Below, piece after piece: positions 5,812 to 10,525 of a stretch of 64,000 nt of DNA; position 1 is the stretch's first letter, and the number at the start of each line of letters is the position of its first letter. The stretch spans positions 568,944 through 632,943 of the forward strand of contig OZ245324.1 of NCBI GenBank assembly GCA_965225795.1, given 5' to 3'. The notes below the pieces were generated by a model. The model was given only the letters and a program-made list of their open reading frames with translations. It did no database searches and had not been told where the DNA came from. Source of the stretch: Dehalococcoidia bacterium. GTDB lineage: Bacteria; Chloroflexota; Dehalococcoidia; Lucifugimonadales; JADFKI01. A program made the translations under genes and the position numbers.

Positions 5812-6348
5812 TTAGCTAACCAATTGACTTAGCGTTTGCGGCAGAGCCTCTTCCGCACGTGCCATCACCTCTTCTTCGTTCAGGCTGCCCATCGGATGAC
5901 CTATGACTGCGTACTCGTATCCTGGCATAGCCAGCAAGTTAGTCATTGCTCGCGCTTGAGTATTGAATGGCTTTGTGACTAGGACTGAACAAGGAATGCC
6001 GAGCCTCTCCAGAGCGGCTGCGTCCTGCATACAGCAGGATGTGCAACTCCCTCACTCTGCTGTCGCAGCAATAACAACATCGCACTGCTCGGCCATCTCT
6101 GCAATCATCTCAGCAGGCGCTGGAATGCGGTGCGATCTCTTATTTGCCTCCACAACATTCTTGACTGCATACTGCTTCTTAACTAGGTTCGCAACGTCGC
6201 GCAGCAGCAATTCAGAATTCGGCTTGTTATTAGACAGCAGTCCGACTACCAGTCCGTCAAGGGTGCGCGGGCGCTGTGCTATGCCGGTGTTCTCGTGCAT
6301 GCTCCCGCCGCGCGGATCAAGTGTAATCAGTTCGTTCTCTTGAGTCAT
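5812..6348 (-). CDS. UGSC-type selenoprotein (U-G-S-C-T-S-C, a UxxCxxC motif) with in-frame TGA at 6052-6054.
   Basis: Track ORFs 6052-6357 and 5812-6030 are in one frame, separated only by TGA: ..VVIAATAE-U-GSCTSCCMQDAAALERLGIP.. The GAGGTG RBS lies 6 nt before ATG 6348. A hairpin follows the TGA. Confidence 0.75.
6023..6039 (-). promoter_or_regulatory. Candidate bacterial SECIS hairpin for the UGSC gene.
   Basis: The mRNA UCCUGC-UGUAU-GCAGGA starts 13 nt after the UGA, and its loop contains GU. Confidence 0.4.
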
Positions 6349-6388
6349 AGCATTCACCTCTAAGTCTGAATCTGCTTCTTGAAATCCG

Positions 6389-7408
6389 CTATGTGCGGAT
6401 TTCCTTGGTAATTGAAATCACATCTCCCCACGCACCGATCAGCATTGCAAAGGGTCCCGCATCGCCCCCCGCTCCCACAACCGTTATCTCTTCCGTACTT
6501 GCTACCACGGGAATCCGCCTATCCAAGTCGTGCCCGGTGTACAGAGTGATGCGTCGGTGCATTTCGTTCAGTTCACGCCCCGTTCTTGTACCCCGTTCCA
6601 GCATGAATTCCTTGATTCGCTGTTTCGTCCACCCCGCAGTGCGTATGTAATTCATCAGCTCGGGGCTAAGTGCAAGCACAAATTCGGAGTGACGTTCTCC
6701 CAGTACGATTGATGCGTCAGCCGCAATGCTTAGAAAGTCTTCCGGCGCGCTCTCATTCTGAGTGTTCACTTGCACAGGCGAGTTCGCTGCGAACACTGTA
6801 ACAGTGCTATCGGACTCTTTGAACCCCTTCTCTACTCGCAAAGGCTCCCAAGGTATGACGTCGTCGTTCTCCGCGAAGCAGAACGAATACTTGCCCGGAT
6901 GCCCGAAGGTGCTCTTATCCATCCCGTGCGGCACAGAACCGTACACATTTATCTTGATAAGCCCCATCGCGCGCCCGATGGTTGCGTTCGCGCGGAAACC
7001 ATGCCCCATTGCCACCGTGCTTGAGTTGATGCCAATCTGCTTGGCAATGTCGCCGCTGACAATAACCAGTACGCTCACTCCGTTGGTCGATGTGCTGTTG
7101 GCATGAAAATTGAACGCACGCTCCGACACCGCCTGCACTGCCGCCACGATTACCGGCATGTATTCCGGCTTGCACCCTGCCAAAACCGCGTTGATTGCGA
7201 CTTTCTCAGCGGTGAACTCAACGCCGCGCACGCACTCTTCCGCAATGATGTCTGAAGGCGCAAGCCCGGCGTAGTCGAGCATCGCCTGCACCATGGATTC
7301 CGTCGGTGGCACGACAGGCAACCCGTCGCCCATCCCATCAGACATGTAATAGTCTTGAGCGTCTTCATAGCTCGAGTGACGGACCCTTGATGAAGTAAGG
7401 CCGTTCAT
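6389..7408 (-). CDS. Conserved hypothetical protein (GDGLPVVPPT motif), co-oriented partner of the UGSC selenoprotein.
   Basis: 339-aa ORF lying 31 nt upstream of the UGSC gene and 21 nt downstream of the esterase gene. I recognise no family. Confidence 0.6.
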   Translation of the reverse strand: MNGLTSSRVRHSSYEDAQDYYMSDGMGDGLPVVPPTESMVQAMLDYAGLAPSDIIAEECVRGVEFTAEKVAINAVLAGCKPEYMPVIVAAVQAVSERAFNFHANSTSTNGVSVLVIVSGDIAKQIGINSSTVAMGHGFRANATIGRAMGLIKINVYGSVPHGMDKSTFGHPGKYSFCFAENDDVIPWEPLRVEKGFKESDSTVTVFAANSPVQVNTQNESAPEDFLSIAADASIVLGERHSEFVLALSPELMNYIRTAGWTKQRIKEFMLERGTRTGRELNEMHRRITLYTGHDLDRRIPVVASTEEITVVGAGGDAGPFAMLIGAWGDVISITKEIRT

Positions 7409-7429
7409 TTGAATTCCAATCCTCTTCTC

Positions 7430-8344
7430 TTATGCTAGGCTAACTGCAACGCCGATTTGTTCCTTTATGAAGTCGCCCATGCGATCTACTGCCTGCTGAC
7501 CTTCCGGCAGAAATGGCGCGAACCACGGCCAGACATGTACCATGTCGTCCCAGACCTCCAGCGTGCTGTCCACCCCTGCGGCTTCCGCCTTTTCGTGTAG
7601 TCTCACGGCGTCGTCCATCAATACTTCAGCTGTGCCTACGATGATGAGCAGAGGCGGCAACCCTGCTAGGTCTGCATAGAGCGGTGCAGCCAGCGGATCT
7701 CGAGTATCCTCCCCGCCGAGGAATTTTTCCGCCATTTCCAGCAGCCCTTGCTGTGAAACCATTGGGTCTATGCCGGCCTTGGAAGTCATGGAATCGCCGA
7801 TGCCCTCCATATCGACCCACGGCGATACGCAGACACCTGCTGCAGGAATCGGGTCGCCCGCGTCTCGCGCCGAAAGGAGAGTTGCGACCGCAAGTCCGCC
7901 GCCCGCTGAATCTCCTGCAACCACTATTGATGAGGAATCAATGTCATTGTTCAGCAGCCAGCGGTAAGTCGCATGCGCGTCCTCAACTTGGGCAGGATGC
8001 TTGTGTTCGGGCGCAAGTCTGTAATCTACAGTGAGCACGCGGCAACCACTCGCCCGAGACAGGTTCGCAGCCATGCCTCTGTGGCTTTTCACGGAGCCTG
8101 TTACATATCCGCCCCCGTGCAGGTAAAGGATTGCGCCGTTGCCCGCACCTTCCGCTAATACCCACTCTGCTGGCACGCCGTCCGCATTGACTGCTTCTGT
8201 GGTGACTCCATCAAGATTCTGAAACCTTGCACCCATCAGCTCGCTTCCAGCGCGCCTCTCTTCTAATGTCGGCGTTCTTTCAGCGTTCGCGATCGCACGT
8301 TCCGCGAACATTTCCAGTAGGTCCTGCAACTCTGCGCTTGCCAT
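7430..8344 (-). CDS. Alpha/beta hydrolase, hormone-sensitive-lipase-type carboxylesterase.
   Basis: HGGGY oxyanion motif and GDSAGG nucleophile elbow; 304 aa. Confidence 0.85.
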   Translation of the reverse strand: MASAELQDLLEMFAERAIANAERTPTLEERRAGSELMGARFQNLDGVTTEAVNADGVPAEWVLAEGAGNGAILYLHGGGYVTGSVKSHRGMAANLSRASGCRVLTVDYRLAPEHKHPAQVEDAHATYRWLLNNDIDSSSIVVAGDSAGGGLAVATLLSARDAGDPIPAAGVCVSPWVDMEGIGDSMTSKAGIDPMVSQQGLLEMAEKFLGGEDTRDPLAAPLYADLAGLPPLLIIVGTAEVLMDDAVRLHEKAEAAGVDSTLEVWDDMVHVWPWFAPFLPEGQQAVDRMGDFIKEQIGVAVSLA

Positions 8345-8539
8345 CTGATGCTCCTTTTCCGTCCAAGGTGGGTCTCACATTTGTGTGTGGAGGTATCGGC
8401 GATTTTCACGATTATATCGCCACAGACGCCAAGTGCCAAGTTGCTCCGCGGAATCCTATACCACTTGTGGGAATATGATATGATTGGCACGCTTCCCGCA
8501 GTTCAGATTCGCCTCTACGCCAAAACGGGGGACAGCAGA

Positions 8540-9574
8540 ATGGCTCGCCGCAACTTCTCTATGATTGAGTATTTCAATCGCCGTGCCAAGAACTGGACGC
8601 CGCGGCTTGCATTTCGAGGCGAGACAAAGGCAGACTGGGAAGCTTGGCGTGGTACTGCACTGGCAAAATTGATAGATGTTCTAGGGGAATTCCCCGAAAC
8701 AGTTGACCCTGCACCCGAAGTCGTCTATTCGGTTGAAGACAACGGACTTGTGCGCGAGCGTGTTGTTTTTGATTCGGAAGAGTACATGTCGGTGCCATGC
8801 GTAATCCTCAAACCTGCTGATATGCCCAACGACGGAAGTTCACCGGCGATCCTGTGCAGCCACGGGCACGGTCCTTTCGGCAAGGAGCCTGTTGCAGGCA
8901 ACGCCTCATCCGAGGCAATGCGGGCTAATATGGCAAGGCACAACTACAATTACGCTGAGCAGATGGCTCGCAGGGGTTTCCTGACGATAAGCCCGGACCT
9001 TAGGTGCTTCGGTGAACGTTCCGATGGGCCGGACCCATATCCGGGCCGCGACCGGTGCAATGTTCATTTCGTACGTGGCGCGGTTATGGGAATATATACT
9101 CTCACACTGAACATCTGGGACATGATGCGCTGCATAGACTACCTGCAAAACCGACCTGAAGTTGATCCTGAGAGAATCGGGATGATGGGGTTGTCGCAGG
9201 GTGGAACTATGACCACCTTCACTGCGGCAATCGAGCCTAGAATCAAAGCCGCCGACATCATCGGATATCTCAACCCCTGGGCCGAATTCGGCATTCAGAA
9301 TGCCAATTTCTGCGGCTCCCAAATTGTGCCTGAAGTGTACCGATACCTGGACACTCACGACATCGCCGGGCTGGTAGCACCTCGTCCTCTGCTTGTTGAG
9401 ATGGGTGTACACGACACCACATTTCCCATCGAGGACATGCTTAGCGGATATGAAGGAGTAAAGCGAATTTACGCCGCCGCTGAAGCGTCCGCACATCTAT
9501 GGGCGGATGTTCATCCGGGAGAGCACGCCTTCGCGGCAAACAAAGCGTTCGATTTCTTCGAGCGGTACTTGTGA
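8540..9574 (+). CDS. Alpha/beta hydrolase (acetyl-xylan-esterase/dienelactone-hydrolase-like).
   Basis: GLSQGG nucleophile elbow and C-terminal HD/H residues. The track start at 8348 would abut the divergent gene. ATG 8540 is preceded by GGGGGA. Confidence 0.7.
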   Translation: MARRNFSMIEYFNRRAKNWTPRLAFRGETKADWEAWRGTALAKLIDVLGEFPETVDPAPEVVYSVEDNGLVRERVVFDSEEYMSVPCVILKPADMPNDGSSPAILCSHGHGPFGKEPVAGNASSEAMRANMARHNYNYAEQMARRGFLTISPDLRCFGERSDGPDPYPGRDRCNVHFVRGAVMGIYTLTLNIWDMMRCIDYLQNRPEVDPERIGMMGLSQGGTMTTFTAAIEPRIKAADIIGYLNPWAEFGIQNANFCGSQIVPEVYRYLDTHDIAGLVAPRPLLVEMGVHDTTFPIEDMLSGYEGVKRIYAAAEASAHLWADVHPGEHAFAANKAFDFFERYL

Positions 9575-9652: not shown

Positions 9653-10525
9653 ATGATAATGGACTTGGAACTCAGCGGTAAGAAGGCACTCATAACCGGC
9701 GGCAGTCGCGGTATCGGTAAGGCGATAGCCCTGGAACTTGCCAGAGAGGGCGTTGATATTGCCATAGCAGCCCGCGACTTGGACGCTCTCGACGAAGCAG
9801 CTCGCGATATAGCGCCCGCAATGGGACAGGAAAGGGTCAACTCGACTGCTTTCGGTTCGGGATTTCGCGCGCGCCGGTACAATTTGTCAGGCGTTGGTAG
9901 GAAGTTGGTCGCGGTTCGCGCAGACACAACCAAGGACGATGAAGTGCAGACTCTTGTTGACATCGCGGCAGACGAACTTGGTGGCATAGACATTCTGGTG
10001 AACAACGCCGCCGCACCAGGCGGTTTGGTCGGAGGTGGTCTGGCTCACGCGAACACGGATGACCTGTTGGCGGACATCAATACCAAAGTCGTGGGGTATT
10101 TGCGCTGCTCGAAGGCTGCTGCGCCGCACATGCAGCGCAACGGCTGGGGGCGAATTATTATCATTGGTGGGCTGGCTGCGCGAAACTCTGGCACTTACAG
10201 CGGTCTGCGTAATCTTTCCCTGGTCCATATGACAAAAACCATGTCATCAGAACTAGGTCAATACGGGATTACAGTCAACACCATCCATCCGGGCACCACT
10301 ATCACCGAACGCTCCGGCCCAATGTATGAGGCTCAGGCGCAGCAACAAGGCGTCACGCGCGAGGAAATTGAAGCGCAGGTGGCATCGGGGATCGCGGTCG
10401 GGCGTATTATTGACGCATCCGAAGTCGCATATGTCGTGGCATTTATAGCATCGCCCAAGGCTGGCTCAATCACCGGCGAGGCAATCGCCACCGGTGGCGG
10501 TGTAGGCAGTGCAGTTCACCAATAA
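9653..10525 (+). CDS. SDR-family oxidoreductase.
   Basis: TGGSRGIGKAIA Rossmann motif, NNAA, and Y..SK (YLRCSK) catalytic motif. It has a long loop after beta2. Confidence 0.85.
   Translation: MIMDLELSGKKALITGGSRGIGKAIALELAREGVDIAIAARDLDALDEAARDIAPAMGQERVNSTAFGSGFRARRYNLSGVGRKLVAVRADTTKDDEVQTLVDIAADELGGIDILVNNAAAPGGLVGGGLAHANTDDLLADINTKVVGYLRCSKAAAPHMQRNGWGRIIIIGGLAARNSGTYSGLRNLSLVHMTKTMSSELGQYGITVNTIHPGTTITERSGPMYEAQAQQQGVTREEIEAQVASGIAVGRIIDASEVAYVVAFIASPKAGSITGEAIATGGGVGSAVHQ

Follow-up and report, generated by a model that had tools for sequence, protein, structure and literature searches.

UGSC selenoproteins are encoded beside a protein family without a name and may form with it a two-part selenocysteine-dependent reductase

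The window analysed here is a stretch of 64,000 nucleotides from a Dehalococcoidia genome, in which three closely spaced genes on the minus strand encode an HSL-type esterase, a 339-aa protein and a small selenoprotein of the UGSC family. UGSC is almost always encoded beside, or fused with, the 339-aa family, and the conserved unit is these two genes and not all three. The linkage is seen from both directions, the two proteins occur as natural fusions, the in-frame TGA of the UGSC gene is recoded as selenocysteine (Sec), and the partner belongs to no named family. The 339-aa protein and UGSC are probably two subunits (or domains) of one Sec-dependent reductase that is fed by thioredoxin-type donors. 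That the two form a physical complex, work by reductase chemistry, employ the cysteines and receive electrons in this way is inferred from genomic context.

UGSC entered the catalogue of selenoprotein families in 2007-2008 (Zhang and Gladyshev) with its function unassigned (PMC1976440, PMC2398784, PMC9312934, PMC13188914), and a 2026 review still assigns it none (PMC13188914). Hyphomonas neptunium is among the bacteria reported to carry it (PMC1976440). Published accounts describe UGSC as a protein standing alone (PMC2398784, PMC13188914), whereas here it is partnered with a second family. As early as 2008 a fusion labelled 'UGSC/Unknown_1' was on record (PMC2398784), in which Unknown_1 may be the 339-aa family. 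A preliminary description of the window, made from its letters and predicted reading frames, had proposed an undescribed enzymatic system, and with both the family and this fusion on record the claim of full novelty has to be given up. A search of the accessible literature returned no description of the partner family, of the two-way linkage, of the fusions to reductase modules or of the likeness to selenoprotein B that are reported below.

Linkage of UGSC and the 339-aa family

The linkage was followed from the partner by using the best 80 loci of at least 600 confirmed relatives (339-aa alignment, one genome per GTDB species). A UGSC gene was present in 73 of the 80, mostly 8-250 nt downstream and on the same strand, and the loci with the pair belong to at least 8 phyla and a haloarchaeon. 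The sampled hosts were Dehalococcoidia/SAR202, Methylomirabilota/Rokubacteria, Binatia, Burkholderiales, other Proteobacteria, Ktedonobacteraceae, Actinomycetota, Poribacteria, Acidobacteriota and the haloarchaeon. Four of the seven loci lacking UGSC end at contig ends, and the remaining three (L015, L036 and L052) had none within 6 kb. The contig of L015 also holds L050, with two UGSC genes about 93 kb away. A second 339-like paralogue was found in 8 loci, each time with a second UGSC gene beside it.

Inversely, the linkage was followed from UGSC by scanning metagenomes with the DNA pattern G-D-TGA-G-S-C...D only, which gave 120 loci, 116 of them with true UGSC. An adjacent 339-like open reading frame (ORF) accompanied 89 of the 116 genes at a median distance of 287 nt from the Sec codon, and in nine of the 89 the 339 reading frame continues directly into that codon. 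In 26 of the 27 partnerless UGSC genes no more than about 500 nt separate the Sec codon from a contig end. The remaining gene, at L101:3170-4190 (Ga0209810_1000725), is the sole true exception, with flanks of ample length and nothing 339-like next to it. The preliminary description had named a lack of synteny in other genomes as grounds for abandoning its proposal, and because the link holds from both directions and reaches far beyond the lineage, the proposal survives in this respect.

The third gene does not belong to the conserved unit. As judged by tblastn against the 80 loci, the esterase stands beside the pair only in L001 and L002, the partner proteins of which are 87-90% identical to that of the window. 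L075 has a distant esterase 1.6 kb off on the opposite strand, and no esterase occurs in the remaining 77 loci. The alpha/beta hydrolase and the pfkB kinase that neighbour the pair in the window showed the same lineage-bound pattern, and the esterase, the alpha/beta hydrolase, the pfkB kinase, a short-chain dehydrogenase/reductase (SDR) and a major facilitator superfamily (MFS) transporter were all ruled out as conserved partners by the same searches. ORF clustering combined with a Pfam scan revealed no third conserved gene, the most frequent family accounting for at most 6 of the 137 flanking ORFs. Flanking genes were varied and included luciferase-like monooxygenases, NHL/SMP-30 proteins, MFS transporters, CoA-transferases, aldo-keto reductases, P450s and TctC. 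The three-gene operon that had been taken as the system is thereby reduced to a two-gene module.

Recoding of the UGSC gene

The small gene of the window encodes a full member of the UGSC family, as judged from scores over both curated cutoffs, the motif, the in-frame TGA and a hairpin. The frame 5812-6357 is broken by one TGA, and when read through it gives ...VVIAATAE-U-GSCTSCCMQD..., a product that scored 139 bits against NF041046 'UGSC family (seleno)protein' (cutoff 125) and 174.7 bits against PF24696 (cutoff 25). The codon at the Sec position was compared across the 79 UGSC homologues of other genomes, which came from loci fetched via the 339-aa family, and was TGA in 78, TGC in one and TAA or TAG in none. 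The TGA is genuine Sec recoding and no chance stop, and the earlier assignment of this gene to UGSC was correct. The sole TGC belongs to Natrialba asiatica (L040; strain DSM 12278, NZ_AOIO01000048.1), a cultured haloarchaeon with a Cys-form pair in which UGSC lies upstream of its partner.

A hairpin of the selenocysteine insertion sequence (SECIS) type follows the TGA. In the window its core is UCCUGC-UGUAU-GCAGGA at 6039-6023 with a lower stem GUUGC/GCAGC, and across the family it has a 6-bp stem and a 5-nt loop, commonly AGUGU, located 13-29 nt after the TGA. The fold of the window sequence (-28 kcal/mol) is by itself not unusually stable (z = -1.1). In 37 distinct family sequences 95.5% of the cells were paired and 4 of the 6 pairs had changed on both sides, and the covariation was 0.306 compared to 0.082 in shuffles and at most 0.07 in slid registers. 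Since the stem overlaps conserved codons, this covariation is supportive and not proof. No Rfam model matched the SECIS region.

The UxxCxxC spacing reported in the preliminary description is true of the window gene but is not a family feature, since only U/C-G-S-C is kept family-wide. Among 32 fusions the residue in the Sec position was invariant while the second Cys of the motif varied (CGSC, CGNC, CGTS, CGAS). As other cysteines vary, the Sec/Cys of UGSC appears to be the one indispensable redox residue.

The partner family

The 339-aa protein matched nothing in Pfam or NCBIfam, and the 54 members of the family alignment gave only scattered noise in these databases at E <= 10 (SsdA_C, acnB, thiolase). 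A profile search of the PDB with the family had 0 matches at E <= 10. The AlphaFold2 (AF2) model of the protein was confident, with a predicted local distance difference test (pLDDT) of 87.6 and a predicted template-modelling score (pTM) of 0.89. Class I fumarate hydratase and the Toblerone-fold cyclic amide hydrolases, which came up as Foldseek candidates, were rejected as not significant (E >= 3.7e-3, TM 0.19-0.26). The statement that the protein belongs to no nameable family was thus borne out by sequence and fold searches alike.

The family is large. At least 7992 homologues of the 339-aa protein were found, and among 1.84 billion cluster representatives a profile picked out at least 5866 family representatives at 50% identity (E <= 1e-3). 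The closest relatives of the window protein are from metagenome-assembled genomes labelled SAR202 or Dehalococcoidia. The blocks GDGLPVVPPT, AINAVLAGCKPEYMPV and NSTSTNGVS, which had been picked out as conserved-looking, are all present in the protein and sit on invariant or near-invariant columns of the 54-sequence alignment. Conservation of single residues was counted over 150 distant representatives, corresponding to 167 domain instances. Near-universal are D28, G29 and P31 (D28-G29-x-P31), A77, G78, N141, R146, G169, E180 and W187, and T108 is about 85% conserved. C79, in the motif A77-G78-C79, was kept in 150 of 156 instances and C177 in 138 of 158, and no other Cys motif of the family is as well conserved as A-G-C. 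Ala, Val or Gly replaces C79 in six of the 156 domains, in proteins P0242, P0171, P0172, P0224, P0255 and P0257. The cysteines of the partner are probably resolving or relay thiols in most lineages.

The conserved loop D164-K173 was the sole low-confidence stretch of the 339-aa model, with a pLDDT of 42, and rose to about 70 in the model of a UGSC-339 fusion. This rise hints that the loop may face the UGSC domain, but the two models were built from different alignments. Tandem 339-339 proteins of about 710 aa, with the domain duplicated in one chain, were also seen (P0123, P0128, P0132, P0158 and P0161), and in these the Cys of the 'FCF' strand has moved by one residue.

Natural fusions and redox modules

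The 339 domain occurs both alone, in proteins of about 345 aa, and joined to other domains. UGSC-339 fusions of 530-590 aa have Cys at the Sec position, and one from Actinophytocola carries the NCBI name 'UGSC family (seleno)protein'. Sec-form fusions are known in both orders as fragments from gene calls that break at the Sec TGA, either as the C-terminal part of UGSC followed by 339 or as 339 followed by the N-terminal part of UGSC and ending in '...IGD'. P0248 combines the 339 domain with a Pyr_redox_2 domain that resembles thioredoxin reductase, and its gene directly follows one for a Sec-form UGSC. P0242 joins 339 to FeThRed_B, the catalytic subunit domain of ferredoxin:thioredoxin reductase (FTR), P0236 is a triple UGSC-339-FeThRed_B protein, and P0176 consists of an AhpC/TSA-type CxxC domain and 339. 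Self-contained versions of the system with P0248 and P0242 were located at L202:3435-6088, L203:487-3140 and L204:3452-5485. In the version with UGSC and P0242, genes for a fumarate-reductase-like flavoprotein and a 2Fe-2S protein lie downstream and a UbiD gene lies upstream.

These fusions to two kinds of disulfide reductase and to a redoxin are the strongest evidence for thiol/selenol chemistry with thioredoxin-type recharging, and it is evidence from context. The two-component reductase that the preliminary description had suggested is in keeping with both the UGSC-339 fusions and the fusions of 339 to disulfide reductases.

Fold of UGSC and likeness to selenoprotein B

The AF2 model of the UGSC-339 fusion P0183 (pLDDT 89.4, pTM 0.91) suggests a defined arrangement of the two domains. 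In this model five beta-alpha units make up the UGSC domain, whose third helix begins at the Sec position, and the Foldseek neighbours of this domain were lumazine synthase, CheY and UbiX, with a TM of about 0.5 on the target. UGSC thus models as a flavodoxin-like and not a thioredoxin-like fold, which disagrees with the 'likely' Trx-like fold given previously (PMC2398784). In thioredoxin/peroxiredoxin oxidoreductases, thioredoxin reductase (TrxR) and FTR the redox pair is likewise found at the N-terminus of a helix, and modules of these kinds are fused onto 339-domain proteins, but the thioredoxin fold is unlike the five-unit beta-alpha sandwich modelled for UGSC. Sequence searches of the PDB with UGSC and with a UGSC profile gave nothing meaningful.

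The segment around Sec resembles selenoprotein B of the glycine, sarcosine, betaine and D-proline reductases. Among 22 diverse UGSC proteins 11 matched the GrdB model TIGR01917 (best 7.9e-6), 8 matched PrdB, 7 GrdF, 6 GrdH and 6 TIGR01918, in all cases on the Sec segment. The weak matches were colinear, with UGSC 88-129 corresponding to GrdB 333-373 and UGSC 89-133 to PrdB 136-179. When UGSC was aligned by hhalign to eight marine PrdB-like sequences taken from Dataset S1 of PMC2398784, a probability of 71.7% was obtained (E 3.5e-5, 58 columns). Sec was paired with Sec and the next Cys with Cys, and the blocks E..GIPT and HP-x-G were aligned too. UGSC is therefore a probable distant and minimal relative of selenoprotein B and not a member of that family, and the earlier analogy to glycine and proline reductases gains some support from this Sec-on-Sec resemblance to GrdB, GrdF, GrdH and PrdB. 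The marine PrdB/GrdB-like selenoproteins of Dataset S1 (PMC2398784) are themselves abundant, carry the motif U-P-V-C-H/T and have a Sec-segment core in common with UGSC; a Stickland role is improbable for them, and they may form a sister group of orphan Sec reductases.

The resemblance extends to the layout of the systems. Selenoprotein B (GrdB, GrdF, GrdH and PrdB; TIGR01917, TIGR01918 and TIGR04483) has, like UGSC, its Sec in a U-x-x-C that follows a beta-strand and opens a helix, and a larger, substrate-specific second subunit encoded next door can be likened to the partner of UGSC. The Grd systems receive their electrons from a thioredoxin-type system, and trxB/trxA are found in grd operons. 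UGSC however lacks the long N-terminal region of GrdB. Grd and Prd operons contain grdA/C/D or prdC/H, none of which was found among the window neighbours or in the top 25 of 112 flanking families. The hosts of Grd and Prd are amino-acid fermenters, whereas those of UGSC are aerobic marine and soil lineages. The 339 family and the marine PrdB-like sequences, their N-terminal part included, showed no relation (hhalign probability 0.1%).

Genes of the window

The features of the transcription unit are listed in Table 1, and the order and spacing of the three minus-strand genes agree with the preliminary description. The stop of the esterase gene and the start of the 339-aa gene are separated by 21 nt, and the UGSC gene follows after 31 nt if it starts at GTG 6357 or 40 nt if it starts at ATG 6348. 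The Shine-Dalgarno-like sequence GAGGTG at 6360-6355 overlaps the GTG and lies 6 nt before the ATG, which is for that reason the likelier start. A consensus scan found no minus-strand terminator-like sites between the three genes.

Table 1. Features of the UGSC locus, given as positions in the 64,000-nt window
Feature	Position	Strand	Remarks
HSL-type (family IV) esterase gene, 304 aa	7430..8344	-	First gene of the apparent transcription unit; outside the conserved module
339-aa partner protein gene, family unnamed	6389..7408	-	ORF
UGSC selenoprotein gene	5812..6348	-	178 aa from ATG 6348; Sec is residue 99; alternative GTG start at 6357
In-frame TGA, selenocysteine (AE-U-GSC)	6052..6054	-	Read-through translation
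SECIS-type hairpin, just 3' of the TGA	6017..6047	-	Fold and family covariation
Promoter-like site TTGGCA-17-TATAAT	8411..8439	-	Consensus match only, 11/12; upstream of the esterase gene

The esterase was named correctly at the outset and is an ordinary HSL/family IV member, with 203 bits against PF07859, 282 bits against NF058651 (under the cutoff of that model) and the motifs HGGG (LHGGGY) and GDSAG (GDSAGG) in its translation, but it is tied to the pair in this lineage only. The divergent gene on the plus strand encodes an alpha/beta hydrolase, as had been stated, and together with the esterase, the pfkB kinase, the SDR and the MFS transporter it makes up the window neighbours of the pair. 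Its ORF (8348-9574, +) has its first ATG 3 nt from the esterase start codon, upstream of the promoter-like site of the esterase. The true start is probably further downstream, since relatives align from residue 16-18 and Pfam from residue 63. The SDR-family gene (9653-10525, +) matches SDR models in two separate stretches, with about 35 extra residues (about residues 45-80) splitting the Rossmann region. No tRNA-Sec or other Sec machinery was seen within the window, where the sole tRNA is a tRNA-Asn.

Discussion

In the proposed reductase, UGSC would be a small flavodoxin-like alpha/beta protein that bears a redox-active U-x-x-C at the N-terminus of a helix, in a Sec segment remotely related to selenoprotein B. 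The 339-aa protein would, as the preliminary description had suggested for the large subunit, bind the substrate, in a pocket made up of Asp, Asn, Arg, Glu and Trp residues that are near-universal in the family. One or both of C79 and C177 would in most members act together with the selenol, as nucleophile or resolving thiol, and a selenenylsulfide or disulfide would be left after each turnover. Re-reduction would be by a thioredoxin-type system, presumably the general cellular one here and the fused TrxR-like or FTR-like module elsewhere. In this SAR202-type genome the pair is seemingly co-transcribed with the esterase, a link confined to the lineage.

Several observations weigh against this proposal. 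All of its mechanistic claims rest on context, and the neighbourhoods vary beyond the pair and indicate no substrate. The likeness to selenoprotein B is short (about 45-58 residues) and lies under every curated cutoff, with 12.6-16.4 bits for UGSC against models with cutoffs of 65-602. None of the 22 UGSC proteins matched the Pfam model GRDB (PF07355) even at E <= 10, and the 54 members of the 339-aa family matched neither GrdE/PrdA nor Gly_reductase in Pfam and NCBIfam at the same threshold. C79 is missing in a few family members, and because the FTR fusion P0242 has neither C79 nor C177 and still adjoins a Sec-UGSC gene, the cysteines of the partner are not universally essential. Three 339-like genes with full 6-kb flanks (L015, L036 and L052) have no UGSC nearby. 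Conversely, the UGSC gene of L101 has no 339-like gene and lies directly upstream of msrB, encoding a methionine-R-sulfoxide reductase, and UGSC may hence also serve other thiol-dependent reductases.

The selenol could attack the substrate directly, as in Prd and Grd, which is favoured by the Cys-less P0242 and the selenoprotein-B likeness, or it could only recycle the cysteines of the partner, as in methionine sulfoxide reductase (Msr) enzymes, which is favoured by the msrB gene next to UGSC in L101 and by the fusion with a redoxin. A serious but clearly less probable alternative to the two-subunit reductase follows the latter course and regards UGSC as a dedicated thioredoxin-like electron carrier, the chemistry taking place on the 339 cysteines in the Msr manner (from sulfenic acid to disulfide to reduction) and the selenol never meeting the substrate. 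The absence of a 339-like gene beside the UGSC and msrB of L101, the thioredoxin-fold CxxC domain fused to 339 in P0176, the high conservation of C79 and C177 and a U-x-x-C placed at a helix N-terminus like that of dithiol carriers are all consistent with a carrier. A carrier is however hard to reconcile with P0242, where both cysteines are gone and yet a Sec-UGSC gene is adjacent and an FTR domain fused, and with a Sec segment like that of selenoprotein B, the Sec of which attacks the substrate in Prd and Grd (PMC11229817). In addition, the UGSC motif does not keep its own resolving Cys throughout, and the contig of P0176 ends 92 nt past the gene, so that a UGSC gene may follow there too. Another alternative is a true analogue of glycine/proline reductase, in which cysteinolysis at Cys79 would generate an N-terminal pyruvoyl group, an amine would form a Schiff base with it and the Sec of UGSC would cleave the C-N bond. 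The similarity of UGSC to PrdB/GrdB around Sec, the rank of A-G-C among the Cys motifs of the family and the fact that the partner of selenoprotein B in Prd and Grd is a Cys-processed pyruvoyl proprotein (PMC11229817) make such an analogue conceivable, but it is improbable. The partner is without sequence or profile similarity to GrdE or PrdA, Ala, Val or Gly can stand in for C79, and C79 is modelled between two helices with a pLDDT of about 96-98 and no obviously strained loop. Moreover, the 21-40 nt gaps of the window operon are too small for a PrdH-like ORF, and the hosts are mostly aerobes and not Stickland fermenters.

That the three genes of the window form one pathway, in which the esterase releases a product for the 339-aa/UGSC pair to reduce, is likewise doubtful, if slightly less so than pyruvoyl chemistry. 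The short gaps, the single promoter-like site before the esterase, the lack of terminator-like sites between the genes and the same gene order in L001 and L002 would all be expected of a pathway. It is at odds with the retention of the esterase by the two closest relatives only, with 77 loci having none and L075 a distant one, and with the otherwise diverse genes flanking the pair. Finally, the 339-aa protein would on a further account not be an enzyme at all but a chaperone, scaffold or redox-regulated target that UGSC keeps reduced. The lack of any match to a catalytic family or fold agrees with that, but D28, N141, R146, E180, W187 and T108 are enzyme-like, near-universal polar residues in the 150 distant representatives, the additional paralogues within a genome each come with a UGSC of their own, and recurrent fusion to whole modules for electron input is typically seen in catalytic reductases. 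We regard a non-enzyme as very improbable and favour the two-subunit Sec reductase.

The linkage and fusion data point to a widespread and unstudied two-part reductase. Its larger component represents a real gap in protein-family coverage, being a large family for which neither Pfam nor NCBIfam has a model and the PDB offers no related structure. Natural Cys-containing forms, among them the fusions P0183 and P0271 (the latter from Actinophytocola) and the Natrialba asiatica pair, can be expressed without Sec machinery. More tentatively, and with the balance at present rather against it, UGSC and the 339-aa family could constitute a new and widespread class of Sec enzymes, an aerobic-world counterpart of the clostridial glycine and proline reductases with a small subunit descended from selenoprotein B and a partner of unseen fold, cleaving or reducing an abundant small molecule. 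If so, osmolytes, sulfoxides and constituents of dissolved organic matter would be examples of possible substrates, the hosts would include SAR202, Rokubacteria/Methylomirabilota, Binatia, Burkholderiales, Actinomycetota and haloarchaea, and the rank of UGSC among the most abundant aquatic selenoproteins would be explained. By its linkage to an unnamed family, its natural fusions, including those with electron-input modules, and its selenoprotein-B-like Sec segment, an abundant ocean selenoprotein with no assigned function becomes a defined and testable two-component system. Should its substrate be a common marine or soil compound, a selenium-dependent step would be added to the cycling of carbon, nitrogen or sulfur.

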